The position numbers and the translations under genes are program-made. The notes beneath the pieces are model-generated. The model did not search any database and was not told the origin of the DNA. It saw only the letters and a program-made list of their open reading frames with translations. A stretch of DNA of 64,000 bases from Elsinoe ampelina (taxonomy: Eukaryota). Of the stretch, positions 13,082 to 62,316 are shown piece by piece. Where the stretch lies: positions 62,001 to 126,000 of the forward strand of contig ML992505.1 of the NCBI GenBank assembly GCA_010093995.1, in the 5' to 3' direction. Each line of letters begins with the position of its first letter. Within the stretch, counting starts at the first letter, position 1.

Positions 13082-14836
13082 TCACGTGCTCTCCTGCTTC
13101 TGCCGTTCAGCGGCTTCTCTCCATCGCTCTGCATAATGCTTCATCGCCCAAAGTGTCACAATTCCACTCAACAACGTCCAGACACCCAGAATGGTGAACA
13201 GCCATCCGTCGCCAATGCCAGTGATGGCTGGCTCGCCCACGATACCTGCTATACAAGAGAAGATGTTCCTGACAAAGTTATTGACAGCGATACCGTGACT
13301 GCTCGTGCTGGGCATGAATTCCGTCAACATGGTCGTGCAACATCCAAAGACAAGCATGGATCCCACGCCAAAGAAGAAATTGGCGATCATGGGCGCTGCG
13401 ATGTGTACACCTTTGCCGGCTGTCCAACCATACCAGACAAGAGCAATGGGGTACATGATAGCAGCAATCCAGACATTCTCTCGCATGCGATCTTCGGGCC
13501 TGAAAATCAGGCGACCGCGCTCATCGACTCGTCCTGCTTTCCGTGCTTCTCGCTTCATGATCCGGTCGACCCAGGATCCACCGAGTATGGAAGCGAGGAA
13601 GTAGCCAACGGAATTGGGAATGTACAATAGACCAACAACGAGGACACTGTAGTTGTATGGAGGCTTGTTGAATGTCTGCTGTAGACTGACGTTCAAGAAG
13701 TAGAGGGAGGCGAAAGTCATGGAAGCGTAGAAGACGGTCAGCGCCACCGGGGGACTGCGGAGATGCAGAATGATCTTCAGCGGGTCGACAAAACAACGCT
13801 GGAACATCTTTGTGTACTTCTTGGCCTTGATAGCAGCACTCTGTCGGGTCGAGCTTCGAGTCAATGTAGGCCGCATAGGTGTACCCTTCTCAGGATCGTT
13901 TGAGGAGGACAACGCAGCGAGAGCATCAGCCTCAGCCGCCGCTTTTATCGACTTTCGATTTCGCAATGTCTCTGGTAGACAGAGCAAGATCAATATCCAA
14001 AGGATGACGCCAAGTACTGCTTGCGACCACAGTGCCGATCTCCAACCAAGAGTTTGGGTCAAGATACCTCCCAAGATAGGAGCCAAGAGTGGTCCGCATA
14101 GAGGGCCAAGATAGAAGTATCCCATGGCTCGTCCTCTCTCCTTGACTTCCCAAACATCAGCCACCGTGCCGGCTCCGACAGCTTGGACAGATGCCGAGGC
14201 ACCGCCAGATAACAGCCGCATGACGATGAACATAGCCATGTTCACTGAGAGGGCGGATAGGATGTTGAAGATCAAGAAGAGAAAGAAGGACGTAATGTAA
14301 ATGGTCCTGCGACCGAGAGTCTCGGAGAAAGAGGACCACCAGAGCGGGAATATTGACATGGCAAGCATGTAGAATGCTACCGACATGTTTCCAATGAAGG
14401 GCGTACTACCGAAATCGTTTACTATTTCGATGAGTCCAGGAAAGACCAGTGTGCTTCCCATGGGCGCTGCCACAGCTGAGAGGGAGACGACGGCGGTAAT
14501 GACCCATTTGTCTCTGTTTGGAAGATCATACGGGTTCTCGACCTCTGGTATGACTGCAAACCTTGCCAATAGCCCTCGTCTTTGGCTTCGTGGTATCTTG
14601 ATGACATCCCTTTTCACACTGCTTGACTTTGATGGTGTCCGCGACAGTGGGGCTGGCTCCTCAAGAGACTCCACAGAGGTCGAGTCGGCCCCCGCTTCGA
14701 CATCTTCGAAAGGTTCCCCATCGTGGCTTGAAAATGTGGTTGTATGGGTGAGGGCCGGCGATGGAGCCGTCACTGACCCGTCTTCGTTTTGCGAATCAAT
14801 CTTGACATCGGACTTGTCTTTGTGTCCTTGGTGCAT
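13082..14836 (-). CDS. MFS drug:H+ antiporter, DHA1 family (Dtr1/Qdr-like)
   Basis: About 12 hydrophobic segments; SETLGRR (motif A), MRLLSG, ADVWEVKERGRAMG, GPLLAPILGG, GWR and PETL. Confidence 0.9.
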   Translation of the reverse strand: MHQGHKDKSDVKIDSQNEDGSVTAPSPALTHTTTFSSHDGEPFEDVEAGADSTSVESLEEPAPLSRTPSKSSSVKRDVIKIPRSQRRGLLARFAVIPEVENPYDLPNRDKWVITAVVSLSAVAAPMGSTLVFPGLIEIVNDFGSTPFIGNMSVAFYMLAMSIFPLWWSSFSETLGRRTIYITSFFLFLIFNILSALSVNMAMFIVMRLLSGGASASVQAVGAGTVADVWEVKERGRAMGYFYLGPLCGPLLAPILGGILTQTLGWRSALWSQAVLGVILWILILLCLPETLRNRKSIKAAAEADALAALSSSNDPEKGTPMRPTLTRSSTRQSAAIKAKKYTKMFQRCFVDPLKIILHLRSPPVALTVFYASMTFASLYFLNVSLQQTFNKPPYNYSVLVVGLLYIPNSVGYFLASILGGSWVDRIMKREARKAGRVDERGRLIFRPEDRMRENVWIAAIMYPIALVWYGWTAGKGVHIAAPMIANFFFGVGSMLVFGCCTTMLTEFMPSTSSHGIAVNNFVRNIFSCIAGIVGEPAITGIGDGWLFTILGVWTLLSGIVTLWAMKHYAERWREAAERQKQEST

Positions 14837-15762
14837 GTTTCGAGCTCCTTCTGGATAGCTATAGCTTCAGCGTAATCGGCAGGACGCTGTATTACTATCT
14901 AGCCGCGGTAGTTTCGATAGGTGTACCTCGCTCTAAGCACTATGTCGTACAATTGCTATGCCCGCGAGTCCAGGGATGAAGGTATACTAGAGTGTCATCT
15001 ATGCGAAGAGATTGAAAGACGAGCAGAGAAAAGGAAATGGTAAACCTAGCGTTCTGTGGTGCCGCATTTTCCGCGTTCACGACTGCAGTTGGAGCACGAG
15101 AATGAGGGGATGATACCGAGCAATTCGCTGCCGACGATCCGGAAATGGGAGCGAGTGAGAGAGTGGGATGAGTGAGCACTCGCCAACGACAAGAAGTCGC
15201 TGCCGTCAGTGCCGGAAAAGAGTTTGGCGTCGGGAGTTTCCCGCCGATCATGCACCTGCATTAACATTTTCAACTTGTCGTAGCCCGAACGAGATCTTGC
15301 CCTCCCTGAACCTCAACTTCATCCAACCTCTTTCCTGCATCTTCCAAATCGCCGTGCTACCACGTGCTGGCAACACGTACGTGGCGGCTCCATGTGCCTT
15401 TTCGGTCATCCTCTTCCGCACGGGTGCATCGTGGTGGAACAAGTATAACGAGATGCCAACGGTGACCCTTCTACGGCCTATCGCAGGGCTGGAACGTCTG
15501 GAATGTCTAGTCTCTTCATCATCGTCAAGTCCTCTTCACGCACTCTGTCTCATTTTGATTCACCGAGGACTGACAGAATAGTCATTGTGGGTCGCATAAC
15601 GGCTCTGGGCACTCGGCTCGCACTGTCATTGTGAGACTGTTCTTGACAAGGTTGGTATATGAAGGCCTGCTCTTCCTCTTTCCTTTCCTATAGTCATTCA
15701 TTCACTAATCGGTTTCGTTTTTCCCTTTCCTTCTTTTCATTCTTTCTTCAGGTCCATCCGGC

Positions 15763-16425
15763 ATGGCACCCCTCTCTTTCCTCGTTCCCCTTTTCCTCTC
15801 AGCGCAGGCGCTTTCCCTCACCATCTCCACCCCTACAACCACCCCGGCGGCGGTACTCACGAGTGCCATTCCGTCCGCCATGACCCCGGCCCCAGCCTTC
15901 ACTCAGACCATTTGCGCCGACAACCTGCACAACTTCGTCGCCCGTCCTCAAGGCACGGAAAAGCGCCGCTTCTTCTGTCCCGGAGTGGTGTCAGGACTTC
16001 ATGGTAACGACATCTCGACCGCCTACTGCTGCATCAACGCCATCTTTCTTCCCGAAGTTCCCATGACCAAGTGGGACTACGCGCACGTCGGCATCGCCAT
16101 CCCCAGCTCCGTCATCCAGCCTTCCTGCGTGCAGCCAATTCCTCTCACGGCTTCCAACTACGATGCTCTTGTCAGCGCCGCCGCACCAGCCATGACAGGT
16201 CCTCAGATTCCAATGGGTACTCCAGGCAGCGAGGTCGAGATCGATGTTGATGTTGGTGCCGTGGCATTTGTCACCAGTGCTTCTGCTCCTGCTGCAGCGA
16301 CCAAGACCCCCTCTTATACCTACACCGGACCATCATACCAGGGCGCCGCAGGAAAGGAGAACAGCAAGCCTATTGTGGCATTAGTGGTAGCAGTCGCCGG
16401 TGCCATGCTAGGTGCAGCCATATAA
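15763..16425 (+). CDS. Secreted, probably GPI-anchored Ser/Thr/Ala-rich protein with a small Cys-containing domain
   Basis: N-terminal signal peptide, Cys pattern C..CPG..YCC..C, S/T/A-rich linker and a hydrophobic C-terminal tail. Confidence 0.7.
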   Translation: MAPLSFLVPLFLSAQALSLTISTPTTTPAAVLTSAIPSAMTPAPAFTQTICADNLHNFVARPQGTEKRRFFCPGVVSGLHGNDISTAYCCINAIFLPEVPMTKWDYAHVGIAIPSSVIQPSCVQPIPLTASNYDALVSAAAPAMTGPQIPMGTPGSEVEIDVDVGAVAFVTSASAPAAATKTPSYTYTGPSYQGAAGKENSKPIVALVVAVAGAMLGAAI

Positions 16426-18130
16426 GAGACTAATGAAGTGGTAATGACCCGCCTCGAGCGGGAAAGTCCTGAGAGGGCACGACACTCCTTTGAATCATGT
16501 ACATATATAAAAACACATTCACTCGTCCAGCTAGACTGCGAGGAAGTGGTAATGAGGGGAGAGAAAGACACTCTTTAGATTGATCAGTTGGGAAGGGAAT
16601 ACGAAACCGATTCATGCCACCTCTTCATTTCACCTTGTCCATTATGATGTGCTCGCTATACTTGCCATTGATTTTTTAGGCTGTGACATTAGCATCATGC
16701 TGGAGTGAGCTTGCGAGAAGTGACGTTCCCCTCGGGAATGATGAGTTGCCGACCCCAACATTCGGCAGCTGCGGCTCCAATTTCTGGTCTGGTTCTCCGC
16801 GCTAAAAATACGAAGCTGAACATCGCACGACGGTGTGGTATGATGATGGGTAGTCGAATCCCGCTCCGTGCCCCGAGGGGGACACTTCCATCCCTTATCA
16901 TCACATGACATGTCCCGGCCAGCCTACCATTAAGCGGTCAATCTCTTCGGAACCAATGAAATCGTTCTTGCGCATCTCGGGGAGGATATCGAATGCTGAA
17001 CAGCAGGGTACGGTCGTACAAGCGAACAAGGTAGAGCTTCCTTTCGAGGCGTCGGAGACCACAAAATACCTTTTCTTGGCTTCCGCTATCGTTCTAGAAA
17101 ACATGGACACGAGTCGGGCACGATGCAGGAAGCGACGGAAATGACGAGCTCGAGATGGTGGCATTTTCAAGACGTAGTACTCATGCAGAAGAGGAGCTAC
17201 CATGATGGACTGAGATGGACTGGCGTGCAACGATAAAGTCCTGCTGTCAGCGCCTTCATCACTATCTTCTGGCCACCCTTTTTGCAACTCTCGTCAGCCG
17301 CCCTCTCTCTCTGTGTTTCACAACGCTTTGCCGATCAGTCACTACCTAGGTAATCAGTGGCTCCCGGGGTCGGTCCTTATCGCATCTCTGCCCGCTCATC
17401 TACCCCAGAGTGGCGAATGCCAAGGGGCGCCAGCGGACACCCTTGGTCAGGTACGGAAGGCAACTTGGCCACCGGGGGGTTGCATGAACGTCTTTACATG
17501 ATCCTTCACGATCAAAACGGAAATTGTTGCTATCTCTCGTCCAAGCACTTGACGCTCCGCCCCGCGGCGGTGGCCTATCGGAGGAGAGGACCATGATCTT
17601 CGTCTTGATCGTCGACGCGACCGCACGTCGCGCCTTCTTATCCCATCAATCTTTGAGCTTGTCTGGAAATTACGCCCTCTGCCAAGAATGTCCGCTCTCC
17701 TTGTCCCTGTCTTCGCACGGAGGTCTAGCACGGAAACAGGCAGGTAACATGGTCACCACCTGATATGCCGCGCTCTCAGCTTCGAGAAAACCCACCGACG
17801 TACCGGAGACCTCGCTCATCCCCGCCAATCCGCGGCCAAAGGTCGACTCGCTGTCACCCTGGAGTCCTCACTTGACCTGTGGGTGTTTGTCGATCAACGA
17901 TATACTCGCGAACATGCTTAGAATTATGCATCCCAAGCTCGCCTCCGTATCATTGCGTTCAGCTAATCAACGGCATGTGCATGCTTGGATGGCGTCCTCG
18001 AGGTGGAAGCGTCGGATACTCGTGTGACTGATGTTTGTATAAAGTCAAGTCACTTCTGCTCATTCATATCAACATCATCCAGCGTTCCACCTCTCTCATA
18101 CCATCTACTTCACCTCACACTTCGATCATC

Positions 18131-18990
18131 ATGAAGTCCGTCGTTGCCATCTTGGCTCTGGCCGCCACCGCCACCGCACAGTATGTTCGCTGCGCGGCTG
18201 AGCAACCTCCTGCCGAAATCACTCGACCAGTCGGGATCGACCAACGTCTGCTCGCCGACATTGCGGACCCAGAGATCGCCGCCTTGTCTGTCCAGACCTA
18301 CGTTCACGTCGTCACCACCTCTGCCGCTGCCGCCACCTACAACCAGGCCATTGTCAACCGCCAGATGGACGTTCTCAATGACGCCTACGCCCCGGCCGGT
18401 ATCTCCTTCACCCTTGCTGGGACCGACTTCACCGTCAACAGCCAGTGGGCTGCCGCCACCCAGGGCTCTACTGCCGAGCGTCAGATGAAGACTGCCCTCC
18501 GCAAGGGTGACTATGGCACCCTGAACCTCTACTTCTTGTCCAACCTTGGCGGGGGCCTCCTGGGATGGTGCACCTTCCCCTCCTCCTCCGCCACCCTCGT
18601 CAACGACGGCTGCATTAATCTTGCATCCTCAATGCCGGGTGGCGCTGCCACCAACTACAATCAAATAGGTCTCACTTACCGTCGTCGATGACCCTATGCA
18701 CTAACATATCGTAAGGTTTGACCGCCGTCCACGAAGTCGGCCATTGGTTCGGCGCCTACCACGTCTTCCAAGGCCAGTCCTGCTCCGGCAGCGGCGACCA
18801 GGTCTCCGACACGCCCATCCAGTCCACCGCCACCAACGGATGCCCCGTCGGCAAGGACTCGTGCCCGAACTCTGCCGGCGTCGACAGCATCCGCAACTAC
18901 ATGGATTACTCATACGACAGCTGCATGAACACTTTCTCCGCTGGCCAGATCACTCGCATGAACACTTTCTACAACCAGTACCGTGCATAG
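18131..18990 (+). CDS. Secreted metalloprotease, peptidase family M43 (MEP1/pappalysin-like); 2 exons
   Basis: Signal peptide [27 protein letters not shown] zinc motif; NYMDYS Met-turn. One ~50-nt intron at about 18665-18714 has atypical ends. Confidence 0.92.
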
Positions 18991-19278
18991 AGGGTTGCAT
19001 CAGCAGGAGTGGAGTGAGGGATGGAGTTGGCCGGGAGTCGAGGGTAAGGGGATCTCATTCGGTGTACATATTCTACTGGAACACAGTGAGGATAGCAAGG
19101 ATGATGAGACGAGGTGAGTGACGGCAGCACTTGATGTATATAGCACAGCCGTCAATAAAAGTATATTTAAGAATGTTGCTGATCATCTTCCCTAGCTAGG
19201 TTCTAATGTGTAGCTGCCAAGGCTCATGCATCACGCTGGTGACAAACTGCCATCCCTAACTAGGGCATGACTTACCTC

Positions 19279-19546
19279 GTAGTACCTACTACTATTCTAC
19301 TAGGTTGGAAAGCATTGAGGCACTAGCTATATAGAAAGGCCCACTATCAGCTTCTGGTAGCACCTCCTACTATGCTGCCAGGCTTCAAAGTACTACTAGC
19401 CACATAGAGAAGGATGTGCCACTACCATATGGTTGTAGTACCTCTCACTGTACCACCAGGTTTGAAAGCATTACTAGCTACATAGAAGCAGATATGCCAT
19501 CATCAGATTCTAGTAGTACCTCCTACTACACCATCAGATTTAGAGA
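19279..19546. repeat. 78-bp tandem minisatellite, about 3.4 copies
   Basis: Units beginning GTAGYACC start at 19279, 19357, 19435 and 19513, exactly 78 bp apart. Confidence 0.85.
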
Positions 19547-19756
19547 CAAGTTTCAAAGAAGGAGTTACATATGCCAGTTTTCAGGTTCTAGTAGATCTGA
19601 GGATGCGTACTGTGGCCCAGGCGAGCGGGTACGGATGCACCCCAGCCTCCGAGCTTTTGCCGCAAACTGCCTCATCTGGAGCTCTCCATCTCTTCCCACA
19701 ACGTTACCATCCTCGAACATCAATTGGTCTCGACATACTCTTCCAATTGGGTCAAG

Positions 19757-21237
19757 ATGGCGGACATAATTAAAGGTCTCTTCGGAGGCTCCAAGCCATC
19801 TGCTCAAGCTCCACTCGCCGCTGATTCGGGTACGTCTCCCCATGCGCAAAGGAAGCGCAAATGATCTCGCCCACCCTGCATTCGAATACCTCGATCAGTG
19901 TCGCGTATCATTCCATGGTGCTCTTTTAAACCTGGCAGATAGACTGATTTGTTGTCACAGACTTTGCCGACTTCGCTGGAGCTCCACCACCTCAAGCAGC
20001 CTCGTCCCCTTCTCTGTCCTCCGTCCCCGCTGCTCAGACCTTTGGCCCGAATGTCCCGTTCGCCCAGCGACCGTACACGAAATGGTACCGAGTCAACGAG
20101 CGCGTGTCAGCCGCCGACTTTATGGCCGAGGCTTTCATCCTGCCCATGCTTTTCATCCTCGTCTTCTTTCACATCTGGGGCACTCGCAAGAATCGGTCTT
20201 TGGCAAAGAATTGGATCTCAGCACACGCGACCACTTTGCGGAACGAGTTTGCGGTAGTCGGGTTCGGGCGACGCGCGCAAGAGAGTGATGCAGTATTAGA
20301 CCCGGACACTTTGGTCAAGGAGAAGTCAAAGGACTTGTACCTGTCTTACGCGACAGGACGACAGAACATCGCTTTTGCAGATATCAAGTTCACCCTCGCT
20401 AAGCGCTACAATCCCCTGAGCCGATATGCAGAGTCTGCAATCGCATTCTTCTTTGAGAGTTTCCCAGCGACCACCGAAAAGGTCGAGGTGATTGCTTACT
20501 CTTTCGATGGTCGGGAAGCTGATGTCGTACCGCGTGTACCGGGTCAACAAGCGCCAGAAGTCAAGGGAAAGAGCACATTTGAAGGCTTCATCTGGGCTGT
20601 GACGCACAAAGATGCCATGAAGCGTCTACGGGACGAGAGATACGACCTGAGCTTGACCATCACCAAGGAGAACGCCAAGCTGCCCAACTGGGCCACCGTC
20701 ATGAGTGAATCGGCCGAGATCACCGACCTGCTGCTTACCAAGGATCTGGTCAAGGCAATTGACGATTTCGGCGAAGGTTTCGAGAGCATCATCATTACTG
20801 ACCTGCCGGATGAGGCACCCAAGTCGTAAGTCTCTAATGATCGACTTATGTCTTGCATACTGACAATCCCCAGCCTCGATGCTCTTCAGCCAAAGAAGCG
20901 TCTTATCCTCACAACATCCCTCGACGCCGACCCTGCAGCCTCCAACGCTCTCCTGAACGCCTTCCTTCGCCTGCCAGATTATCTCGTGGCGCAAAAGTTC
21001 CGACCAGAGGTCATGCGCCGCGTCAAGGCCACCCGCGATGAAGAGGCCAAGAAGATCAAGAAGATCGAAGACCTAGAGAAGGCAGAAGGTCGCAAAGAGA
21101 AGCAGGACAAGGCCAAGAAGGAGGAGCGGGAGAAGAAGCTCAAGGCTATGTCTGCCGAGGAGCAGAGGAAGTTTTTGGAAAAGGAAAAGGAAAGAGATCA
21201 AAGGAAGAGAATGGGAAGGCAGACCATGAAGGCGTGA
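19757..21237 (+). CDS. CCDC47/DUF1682 family ER membrane protein; exons 19757-19829, 19961-20825 and 20874-21237
   Basis: Single TM followed by GTRKNR, SYATGRQN, KRYNP, MSESAEI and a C-terminal K/E coiled coil; canonical introns with GTACGT and GTAAGT donors. Confidence 0.85.
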
Positions 21238-60081: not shown

Positions 60082-62316
60082 TTACATCCTGCAAATTGTC
60101 AGTCACTGCTCAGACCAAGAATCGCATCTGCCGTACCTGTCCACTGGGCTCAAACCCAACACCCTCATGCCATTGTTCAGAACCTGCCTGGCACATTCAT
60201 ACAGTGCACCTCTTGCCTTCCTCACTTCTGGCTCCGCCCTGACCACGTTTAGCACCTCATAACTACTGCTCAGCAAATGTGTCATCTTGAAGAGATACGT
60301 CAAGACTGTCACCGGTTCTTGCGTCTTGATCGTGTTGAGGAACACGTCCGGCCACTGCGCCAGACTCCTAACCACGTCTACCGCGTGCTTCTCGCTCAGC
60401 AGGGTCCAGTCCGCACTCTCCAGATCCTCACGCTTGAGCTCCGCCTTCCTGGCGATCGAGCAGAGACGGGCATGAGCATATTGCAAGTATGGCCCAGTAT
60501 CGCCCTCGAAACTCGTCATGCGGTTCAAGTCAAACTCGTAATTGTTGATACGCTTGCCAGACATGTCTTGCACCATGACGGCCGAGATACCCAGCGTGTC
60601 CGCCGTCTGGACCGGATCGTCAACCTGTTCGTACTTGCCCTCGTTGCTGCGCATCACGTCGTGCATCTTCTCTGCCACGTCGCGGAGAATGTCGTCCAAG
60701 AATTTGGCCGTGCCCTTGCGTGTTGACATGCCGAGCACCATGCCGAAGTTGATGTGTTGGCAGCGTTTAGCCACTTCGGCGTACTCATCACCCATGATTT
60801 CGAGGATCTTGAAGAGTTGTGCCAGGTGTAAGTCTTGTTGCGAAGCAACCACATAGATCATGCGGTCGAAGTTGTACTTGTCCAGCCTCTCCCTCGCAGC
60901 TCCAATATCACGAGTAAGATAGAGTGAAGTGCCGTCCTTCTTCCTGACCAGCGCCTTGCCCAGCTTCTTTGCGTACTTTGTAAGATCAACGATGATGGCT
61001 CCCTCCGAGTCGGAACTGACTCCCTTATCCGACATGGTCTTGGCCGCCGCCTCCATGCTCTCTTCTTTGACCTGCGACTCTCCGCTGTAGTCGTCGAAGC
61101 GGATGTTGAGACGAGCATACGTCTGCTTATACTTGACGATCGACAAGTCGCGGAAGCGGCGCCAAATCCCCACTGCCTGCTCATCACCGTCTACCATACG
61201 CTTGAAGTAGCGACGAGCCTGCTCGTCTATGCTTTCGGATTGGAGGCGCTCAATCTCGGCCTGCTTGGACGGGACTTCCTCTTCCTTTCCATTTGCTTGC
61301 AGAGCCTTGACCTCTTCTTGCACCGCCTTGATCTTCTCATTCTGCTCACTTCCGACAGCATTGATCTTGACGTAGACGTCGTACAGGTGTCCAATGGGGT
61401 TCTCTGCCAGCTTTTCTTCCGATCCGAACCTGTCGAAACCCACAGCCAACATGCCGTATTGCTTTCCCCAGTCACCGAGGTAGTTCATCCTGATCACGTC
61501 CCATCCTGCTCCCTCATATAGGTTAGCCAGGAACCCTCCAATGATCGTGCTTCGCAAGTGACCGGCGTGGAAAGGCTTTGCGATATTCGGCGAGGAGAAC
61601 TCCACAATCATGCGCTGCCTCCCTTTTGAGGCGTCTGAGGGATCTTTGAGGCCGAGCTTCGGATTGAACCCGTACGTGCTTTGTGTCTTGAGGATCGTGG
61701 GTAGGACTAACTTGGTGATCGCGAGGGGTTGGAAAGAGAAGGAGACAAGGGTGCCTTTGTCTACTCGGGGAGGCTGCACCAAAGGTGATTCGGGGAACTA
61801 GACAGGTCAGGAGACTGATTGATGCGATTAAGCATGCTTACCCACCTTCTCGACTATGAGCTTTGCTGTCTCATCCGGCTTCTTGCCCTTGATTCGCAAA
61901 GCCGGTACTGGGAGTAGGAGATCTCCATGATCCAATGTCTGGGGCCATTGTATCGCGTTGACAATGATTTTCGGATCTGCGCCAGTGATTGGTTGTAGGA
62001 GTTCTGCGATGTGTGCACGGAAGATGTCGATCTGGTTGTAGGTTGGGTACGACTTGCTCTCGGGTATTTGAGGCACCTTGTCCAGTCCTAGACCGGAGAG
62101 TGTGGTAGTGATCTCTTCAATGCTCTGCCCGGACGAAGATTGTACGCCGTTGAGCGCCATGCTGTGTAATCGCTGTATTTGCTGTGAGAGTGGAGTGGTT
62201 GTAGATTTTATGGACCTTGTGCCGCAGCAGTGACTCAAGCTCGAAAGACGTCGAGAACAGTCATACAGTCGTCGTATCGTTCGCTCACGGACTACTGCTC
62301 GAAATACCGACTGCAT
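60082..62316 (-). CDS. RRS1: Arginyl-tRNA synthetase; exons 62316(or 62160)-61846, 61797-60137 and 60088-60082
   Basis: VEFSSPNIAKPFHAGHLRSTIIG (HIGH-type motif), NYLGDWG, GMSTRKG and GPYLQYAHARL; splicing the last intron gives the VDRM terminus. Confidence 0.95.

Follow-up and report, generated by a model that had tools for sequence, protein, structure and literature searches.

A probable U2-type AT-AA intron in an M43 metalloprotease gene of Elsinoe ampelina

Introduction

How is an intron removed that begins with AT and ends with AA, rather than with the GT and AG of nearly all introns, with a canonical AG lying one base further on? A protease gene of Elsinoe ampelina, a fungus of grapevine, raises this question. 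The gene lies in a 64,000-nucleotide (nt) stretch of contig ML992505.1 (assembly GCA_010093995.1, forward-strand positions 62,001 to 126,000; below, 'the window', numbered from its first base). It runs on the + strand from ATG 18131 to TAG 18990 and consists of two exons separated by a single intron. An earlier note, made from the letters of the window, had proposed that this intron is a natural U2-type AT-AA intron. Our analysis supports that proposal: the signals are of U2 type, the mature transcript lacks exactly 50 bases at the intron, and in the window's strain the element is very probably a functional U2-type AT-AA intron.

The base pair that an intron's first nucleotide forms with its last one selects the 3' splice site, so the ends of an intron of this kind bear on how that choice is made.

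Results

The mature transcript lacks 50 bases

The reading frame of exon 1 stops at 18691 and the motif HExxHxxGxxH lies in another frame; an intron is therefore obligatory, and translation agrees with what the earlier note had concluded from the in-frame TGA. The window coordinates of the exons and of ATAGGT, TGA, CTAAC, TAA and GGT were all re-derived and found to be correct, and the letters at both ends of the intron, from the exon-final CAA to the GGT that follows, are as had been described (Table 1).

A search of sequencing runs listed 24, and contigs of four of them were placed on window positions 18400-19000. Two of the placed runs, X4 and X5, come from two studies and carry the same species label as the DNA runs; they are probably RNA, none of the runs that contain the locus being recorded as such. 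Each yielded one contig with a joint at 18662/18713 that skips 50 nt with two letters of slide. The equivalent placements are 18663-18712 (AA..GT), 18664-18713 (AA..TA) and 18665-18714 (AT..AA). Splice-site signals occur in the AT..AA placement alone, and no placement is canonical on the minus strand. Among the contigs of the four placed runs there was no 47-nt joint, no 51-nt joint and no contig covering the intron. As for runs from relatives, X11 gave no records at the locus, and X12 joins across the site via 28 exon-like letters (read by hand, ending N-L-G-L); this record is a transcript or an intron-less gene, with the same junction and no intron ends.

The nearest in-frame GT-AG option, 18669-18715, would remove 47 nt and add one residue. 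The earlier note had faulted it for a poor GTCTCA donor, an AAG acceptor and an extra Ile, all of which we confirm. The annotated Elsinoe ampelina protein P0121 is identical to both exons with one residue (Ile) between them; its gene model cuts the 47-nt option, hence the extra Ile, which is seen in P0121 alone. That this 47-mer is the true intron is scarcely credible, in spite of its canonical dinucleotides, the public model and the pairing of U1 with AG/GT there: the joint is absent from the contigs although its in-frame product would escape decay, the donor lacks the +3 to +6 consensus, and the resulting spacing is unique among 118 homologs. The contigs use the 50-nt skip instead, which contradicts the 47-nt form as the main form; it may exist as a minor one. 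Nine other in-frame GT/GC-AG options in the scanned range would alter the protein by -16 to +6 residues, and joining the AT donor to AG 18714-18715 leads into a frame that stops at TGA 18719-18721.

Table 1. Features of the M43 protease gene and its intron (window coordinates)
Feature	Position	Strand	Description
Exon 1	18131..18664	+	178 codons; ends CAA (...NYNQ); identical to the N-terminal 178 residues of annotated P0121
Intron	18665..18714	+	50 nt, phase 0, AT...AA ends; 50 nt skipped in X4 and X5 contigs
5' splice site ATAGGT	18665..18670	+	A+1; remainder U2-like (T+2, A+3, G+5, T+6)
Decoy GT	18669..18670	+	GTCTCA, used by the public gene model; U1 pairing absent at +3 to +7
In-frame TGA	18689..18691	+	Inside intron; on translation, retention truncates the protein ahead of the zinc motif
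Branch-site motif ACTAAC	18700..18705	+	CTAAC 18701-18705; predicted branch A 18704, 10 nt before intron end
3' splice site TAA	18712..18714	+	AG 18714-18715 overlaps one base downstream, unused in contigs
Exon 2	18715..18990	+	91 codons and stop; opens GGT; HExxHxxGxxH at 18730-18762

The 50-nt cut restores a conserved protein junction

Judged from its sequence, the gene product is a metalloprotease of the M43 (pappalysin/ulilysin) family and is predicted to be secreted. Exon 2 matches Pfam Peptidase_M43 (PF05572) with 54.2 bits against a cut-off of 23, and the closest ortholog, P0001 of E. batatas, finds its structural matches among mirolysin, ulilysin and pappalysin chains. Exon 1 differs from P0001 at two positions and starts with a hydrophobic stretch, a putative signal peptide as judged by eye.

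A protein search with exon 1 found 176 proteins; among the 120 listed, the best are Elsinoe and Sphaceloma proteins. In a motif survey of 122 homologs, 118 matched the motif pattern and four did not. The 50-nt cut restores the conserved N-x-x-G-x-T-x-x-H-E spacing, and the earlier note's statement that YNxGxTxxHExGH is the usual arrangement holds for its spacing: N/D/H-x-x-G-x-T is spaced in this way in 117 of the 118 pattern-matching homologs, the residue three places before the Gly being N in 85, D in 31 and H in one. The sole exception is P0121 with its extra residue. The E. batatas ortholog, which differs at three of 269 residues, does without that residue, as do the orthologs of E. fawcettii, E. 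australis and S. murrayae. Four further M43 loci in the genome, 54-67% identical to exon 2, have no intron at this position, and a second, near-identical copy of the gene was not found in the assembly.

Assembly errors, artefacts and strain differences

The DNA runs X1 and X2 hold every one of 113 sampled 31-letter words of the region (share 1.00). Under random sampling, one wrong base would escape such a check with a chance of about 4% and two separate ones with about 0.14%. An assembly error at the intron ends is thus unlikely, and the word sampling is indirect for the two terminal bases. The same words count, just as indirectly for 18665 and 18714, against the G at these positions that by the earlier note would have refuted the proposal; with the joint seen in the contigs, both refutation tests of that note favour it.

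Could the 50-nt gap nonetheless be an artefact, produced by an error at the ends or by a reverse transcriptase that switched templates and deleted 50 nt? The joint is supported by two placed runs only, and one predicted fold allows a weak stem around the intron. We regard an artefact as very improbable, given the full share of words in two DNA runs, a junction repeat of just 2 nt, an intron fold of only -6.5 kcal/mol, and a joint that is identical in two studies, agrees with the signals of donor and branch site and brings back the conserved frame.

It is also improbable, though somewhat less so, that the RNA strains have canonical ends or no intron and that the window's allele is dead or barely spliced. 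The contigs display the joined form only and never intron letters, the RNA samples (S3, S4) differ from the DNA sample (S1), and the annotated orthologs of four related species have the correct junction, as this explanation would have it. Against it, the X4 and X5 contigs have no other letters across 551 exon bases, the exons are intact and encode a protein three residues in 269 away from the E. batatas ortholog, and a private allele would need both ends to be altered. In addition, SDH1, a core respiratory gene, has an intron of the same kind in this genome.

The signals are those of the major spliceosome

By sequence, the donor, the branch site, the length and the spacing of the M43 intron are U2-like and not U12-like. 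Four canonical-looking introns in the window, picked by pattern, are 48-82 nt long with 10-14 nt from branch site to end, and the M43 intron (50 nt and 10 nt) fits within both ranges. Its AT...AA ends depart from the GT/GC...AG of U2-type introns. With type II AT-AC introns it shares the A+1 in a major-type donor, and its last base is A (A18714) rather than C.

U12-type introns have an ATCC-type donor and a TCCTTAAC-type branch site. The ATCC-type donor is also given in PMC1557818. ATAGGT and ACTAAC conform to neither, and in the genome there were no matches for U11, U12 or U6atac, in a search without a eukaryotic positive control. Ascomycota are described as having no convincing minor introns or minor small nuclear RNAs (snRNAs) (PMC10639083, PMC11347168). 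We therefore give practically no weight to the explanation that this is a minor-spliceosome AT-AA intron.

The tool that gave no match for these minor snRNAs did find two canonical U1 genes and a U6 gene with a canonical ACAGAGA box in the genome. Against the genome's own U1 5' arm, the donor pairs from +2 to +6 (G+4 as a wobble) with mismatches at +1 and -1, whereas the decoy GT pairs from -2 to +2 only. There are also four divergent U1-like genes, two of them weak profile hits with guessed 5' ends; none has a 5' arm that pairs with A+1 donors in register better than canonical U1.

Several side observations concern these snRNA genes. The divergent U1-like genes with altered 5' arms lie at L090 9300-9865 (-) and L091 621-1565 (-), G000:C5 about 1.205-1.208 Mb. 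The guessed arm of the fourth holds ACTTGC, complementary to a GC donor, GCAAGT, and gives the strongest duplex with a canonical donor. By eye, the U6 gene (L127 about 1500-1710; G000:C12 from 452666 on) contains two apparent mRNA-type introns.

Three other classes were considered for the M43 intron and rejected. It is not an introner-like multi-copy element: the intron is single copy, with itself as the one genome match and no related copies at E up to 10, a search of limited sensitivity. The hallmark of Ire1/HAC1-type, non-spliceosomal introns is a CNG/CNG loop on a stem at both junctions, and neither the junctions nor the predicted folds have such loops here. Two-step or nested canonical splicing was rejected by inspection because only three bases remain after the 47-nt cut.

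Other introns that start with A

SDH1 contains a second AT..AA intron, seen on DNA at G000:C2:975125-975172 (-). It shares with the M43 intron its terminal dinucleotides, phase 0, the exon-end A, the distance of the branch A (10 nt from the end), the G that follows YAA and a decoy GT at +5/+6; it differs in its length (48 nt) and its donor (ATAAGT), and at its site the E. fawcettii gene model is broken. Once the SDH1 intron is removed, the protein regains a motif that 118 of 120 homologs have. The E. fawcettii model, P0123, is one of the 120 hits and drops the exon that ends at the AT donor, while the M43 model of the same species is correct. Indirectly, this suggests that the SDH1 oddity is shared and that the oddity of the M43 intron is younger, the product of a recent gain or of a recent change of its ends. 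No other Elsinoe SDH1 models were seen among the listed members (up to 15 each) of 10 clusters. The U1-C gene, in turn, has a 49-nt AT..AC first intron, seen on DNA at G000:C5:362603-362651 (-).

With SDH1 as a second case built in the same way, it seems that AT-AA introns recur in Elsinoe ampelina as a small class. Genome-wide, an AT..AAG pattern gave 118 matches against 33 in a reversed control; 100 of the 118 were listed, and by eye nearly all of these are AT-rich multi-copy repeats, so that the count, swamped by repeats, is uninformative. The three unique-looking matches among those listed are the M43 intron, the SDH1 intron and C6:267773, which has no gene context.

Discussion

A proposed mechanism of splicing with A at both ends

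The M43 intron appears to be removed by the ordinary splicing machinery. Normal signal parts would define the site: T+2, A+3, G+5 and T+6 for U1 and the U6 ACAGAGA box, the exon-end CAA for U5 loop 1, and ACTAAC for U2. Branching would then link A+1 to branch A 18704. In the second step, A+1 would leave the AG one base downstream without its usual G-G pair; instead, an A-A terminal pair would dock A18714, and A18713 would face the branch A in the usual role of A(-2). A GT-AG intron is probably spliced more efficiently, and retained and AG-spliced products, with their early stops, would be lost to decay. As for its origin, the intron may derive from a GT-AG intron through two changes or from an AT-AC intron through one, or it may have been gained in its present form.

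Several observations count against this account. For canonical U1, the AT register offers no better pairing than that of the decoy: the most stable duplex (-3.5 kcal/mol) forms on AG/GT at 18667-18670. Because U1 energetically prefers the decoy register, it is probably U6 and U5 that set the cut site. The snRNA search had no eukaryotic positive control, and its prokaryotic controls were silent as well. The transcript support consists of assembled contigs, one per run at depths of 14.3 and 5, rather than raw reads; that X4 and X5 are RNA is a guess, and contigs drop rare forms. As the contigs show no intron letters, the RNA strains may be unlike that of the window. The assembly may have been made from X1 and X2, which would then not be independent; they therefore speak against an assembly error and not about other strains. 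The search for an orthologous intron was negative: when metagenomes were scanned for the pattern of a branch site just ahead of the M43 motif, 78 loci came up, all M43-like and all without an intron here. Finally, a G1A change inhibited the splicing of S. pombe test introns (PMC4299874, section 7).

In one metagenome M43 gene (L076), a GT..AG intron recognised by eye sits a few codons further upstream than the site discussed here.

Within the U2-type account, the choice of AA over AG may be sloppy, such that the AG is also used or splicing stalls after the first step, with decay hiding the products. We consider this possible, though doubtful. The retained and AT-AG products both carry early stops, so decay may hide them, and contigs would miss rare forms; A+1 stalls the second step in Aspergillus telomerase RNA (PMC4299874), and A-A ends are called weak in PMC8283771. 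However, both runs keep the spliced rather than the retained path, and SDH1, which is presumably needed at a high level, tolerates the same ends.

Adenosine-to-inosine (A-to-I) editing of both terminal A residues, which would make the ends look canonical, has precedents: human genes gain canonical sites from AT-AG and GT-AA by editing (PMC4176328), and mRNA editing occurs in some filamentous ascomycetes (PMC11156358). We consider it extremely improbable here. According to the paper on fungi (PMC11156358), such editing is specific to the sexual stage, has been reported in Sordariomycetes and in one Pezizomycete, and favours an A that follows U, whereas both terminal A residues here are preceded by A. 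Two sites would have to be edited jointly, and no A>G change was present at 108 exon A positions in X4 and X5, which is weak counter-evidence as contigs give majority letters.

A broader proposal is that the major spliceosome of Elsinoe is relaxed or retuned in its checking of the terminal pair, so that AT-AA introns are spliced efficiently over an adjacent AG and form a recurrent class hidden by annotation, part of a lineage-wide peculiarity that includes the AT-AC intron and the divergent U1-like genes. We think this unlikely.

Relation to known introns

The closest natural relatives of the U2-type AT-AA intron are the U2-type ('type II') AT-AC introns of human SCN4A/SCN5A and TAF2, also proposed in fungal xylanase genes (PMC1557818). 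These are very rare (24 of about 610,000 introns; PMC1557818 Table 1), and like the M43 intron they have an A+1 in a major-type donor that is explained by the first-last base pair; the M43 intron differs in ending in A instead of C and in bypassing an AG one base downstream. Animals and plants have U12-type AT-AA introns with the same terminal dinucleotides (PMC1557818 Table 2; PMC10639083), and in the accessible part of PMC1557818 AT-AA appears under U12 introns only. In contrast to these, the M43 intron has no U12 donor or branch consensus, and its host lineage is reported to be without a minor spliceosome.

In the laboratory, A-A ends weakly support mammalian splicing in mutants (Scadden and Smith 1995, as cited in PMC8283771), and suppressors of G1A have been studied in yeast (Parker and Siliciano 1993, as cited in PMC8283771 and PMC1557818). 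In the A-A double mutants as in the M43 intron, an A at both ends supports the second step, but the latter is natural, is the sole intron of a protein-coding gene and apparently gives the main product. The telomerase RNA of Aspergillus offers another natural A+1 donor handled by the major spliceosome of a filamentous ascomycete: its 5' splice site is AUA(A/C)GU, and A+1 combined with an AG end stops the reaction before step 2, so that the cleaved RNA is set free (PMC4299874). For the M43 intron, unlike this RNA, both steps are completed. Many non-canonical intron ends are spliced in tunicates, whose major spliceosome is modified (PMC13326754).

Sporadic annotated AT...AA introns of fungi are listed in the PMC7072748 supplement. 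In 13 of its 130 species rows, inspected by eye, there is one in Agaricus bisporus and one in Armillaria gallica, a frequency at the level of other odd pairs in those rows; more annotated cases may be present in the other rows or in the Ganoderma supplement (94 splice types). AT-AA is absent from the accessible main texts of PMC7072748, PMC11590231, PMC11347168 and PMC4176328. In the full-text literature searched, outside which most subscription papers lie, AT-AA ends are described for U12 introns and for mutants, and most of the papers found concern minor introns; a natural U2-type AT-AA intron with RNA support was reported in none of those listed.

Such an intron matters for how the 3' splice site is chosen. 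In the yeast P complex, cryo-electron microscopy (cryo-EM) shows that G(-1) pairs with G(+1) and that the branch A has A(-2) as its partner (10.1101/212811), whereas the pair geometry derived from genetics is different and allows G-G, A-C and, weakly, A-A; PMC8283771 argues that the cryo-EM geometry cannot hold A-A. A natural major-type A-A intron with a canonical AG one base away is a ready-made in vivo test of this geometry, and, SDH1 included, one genome offers two AT-AA introns. If the spliceosome were indeed relaxed, natural substrates would decide between the two proposed +1/-1 geometries. The U2-type AT-AA intron as we understand it is a rare exception inside known chemistry rather than a new machine.

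It also matters for annotation. AT-AA introns are mis-annotated: in the public protease model a spurious residue directly precedes the catalytic helix, and the SDH1 model of a relative, E. fawcettii, is left without a conserved exon.

The neighbourhood of the gene

If colinear with the window, the X4 and X5 contigs have their starts (near 16809 and 16861) some 1.3 kb upstream of the ATG. The stretch that they cross there (about 16800-18130) has no obvious coding gene; the transcript in it is possibly an overlapping non-coding or antisense one. X12 would begin near 18088, just past a TATA-like TATAAAG at 18038-18044. A scan for promoters of bacterial type, of no relevance here, gave nothing.

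By eye, we take the neighbouring genes to be an MFS-transporter-like gene (13082-14866, -), one for a small, Cys-containing protein that looks secreted or glycosylphosphatidylinositol-anchored (15709-16425, +) and a spliced membrane-protein gene (19770-21237, +). Between the protease gene and the last of these, about 19190-19560 of the window is TAG/CTA-rich and resembles, by eye, a repeat degraded by repeat-induced point mutation, similar to the repeats that dominate the AT..AAG matches in the genome.
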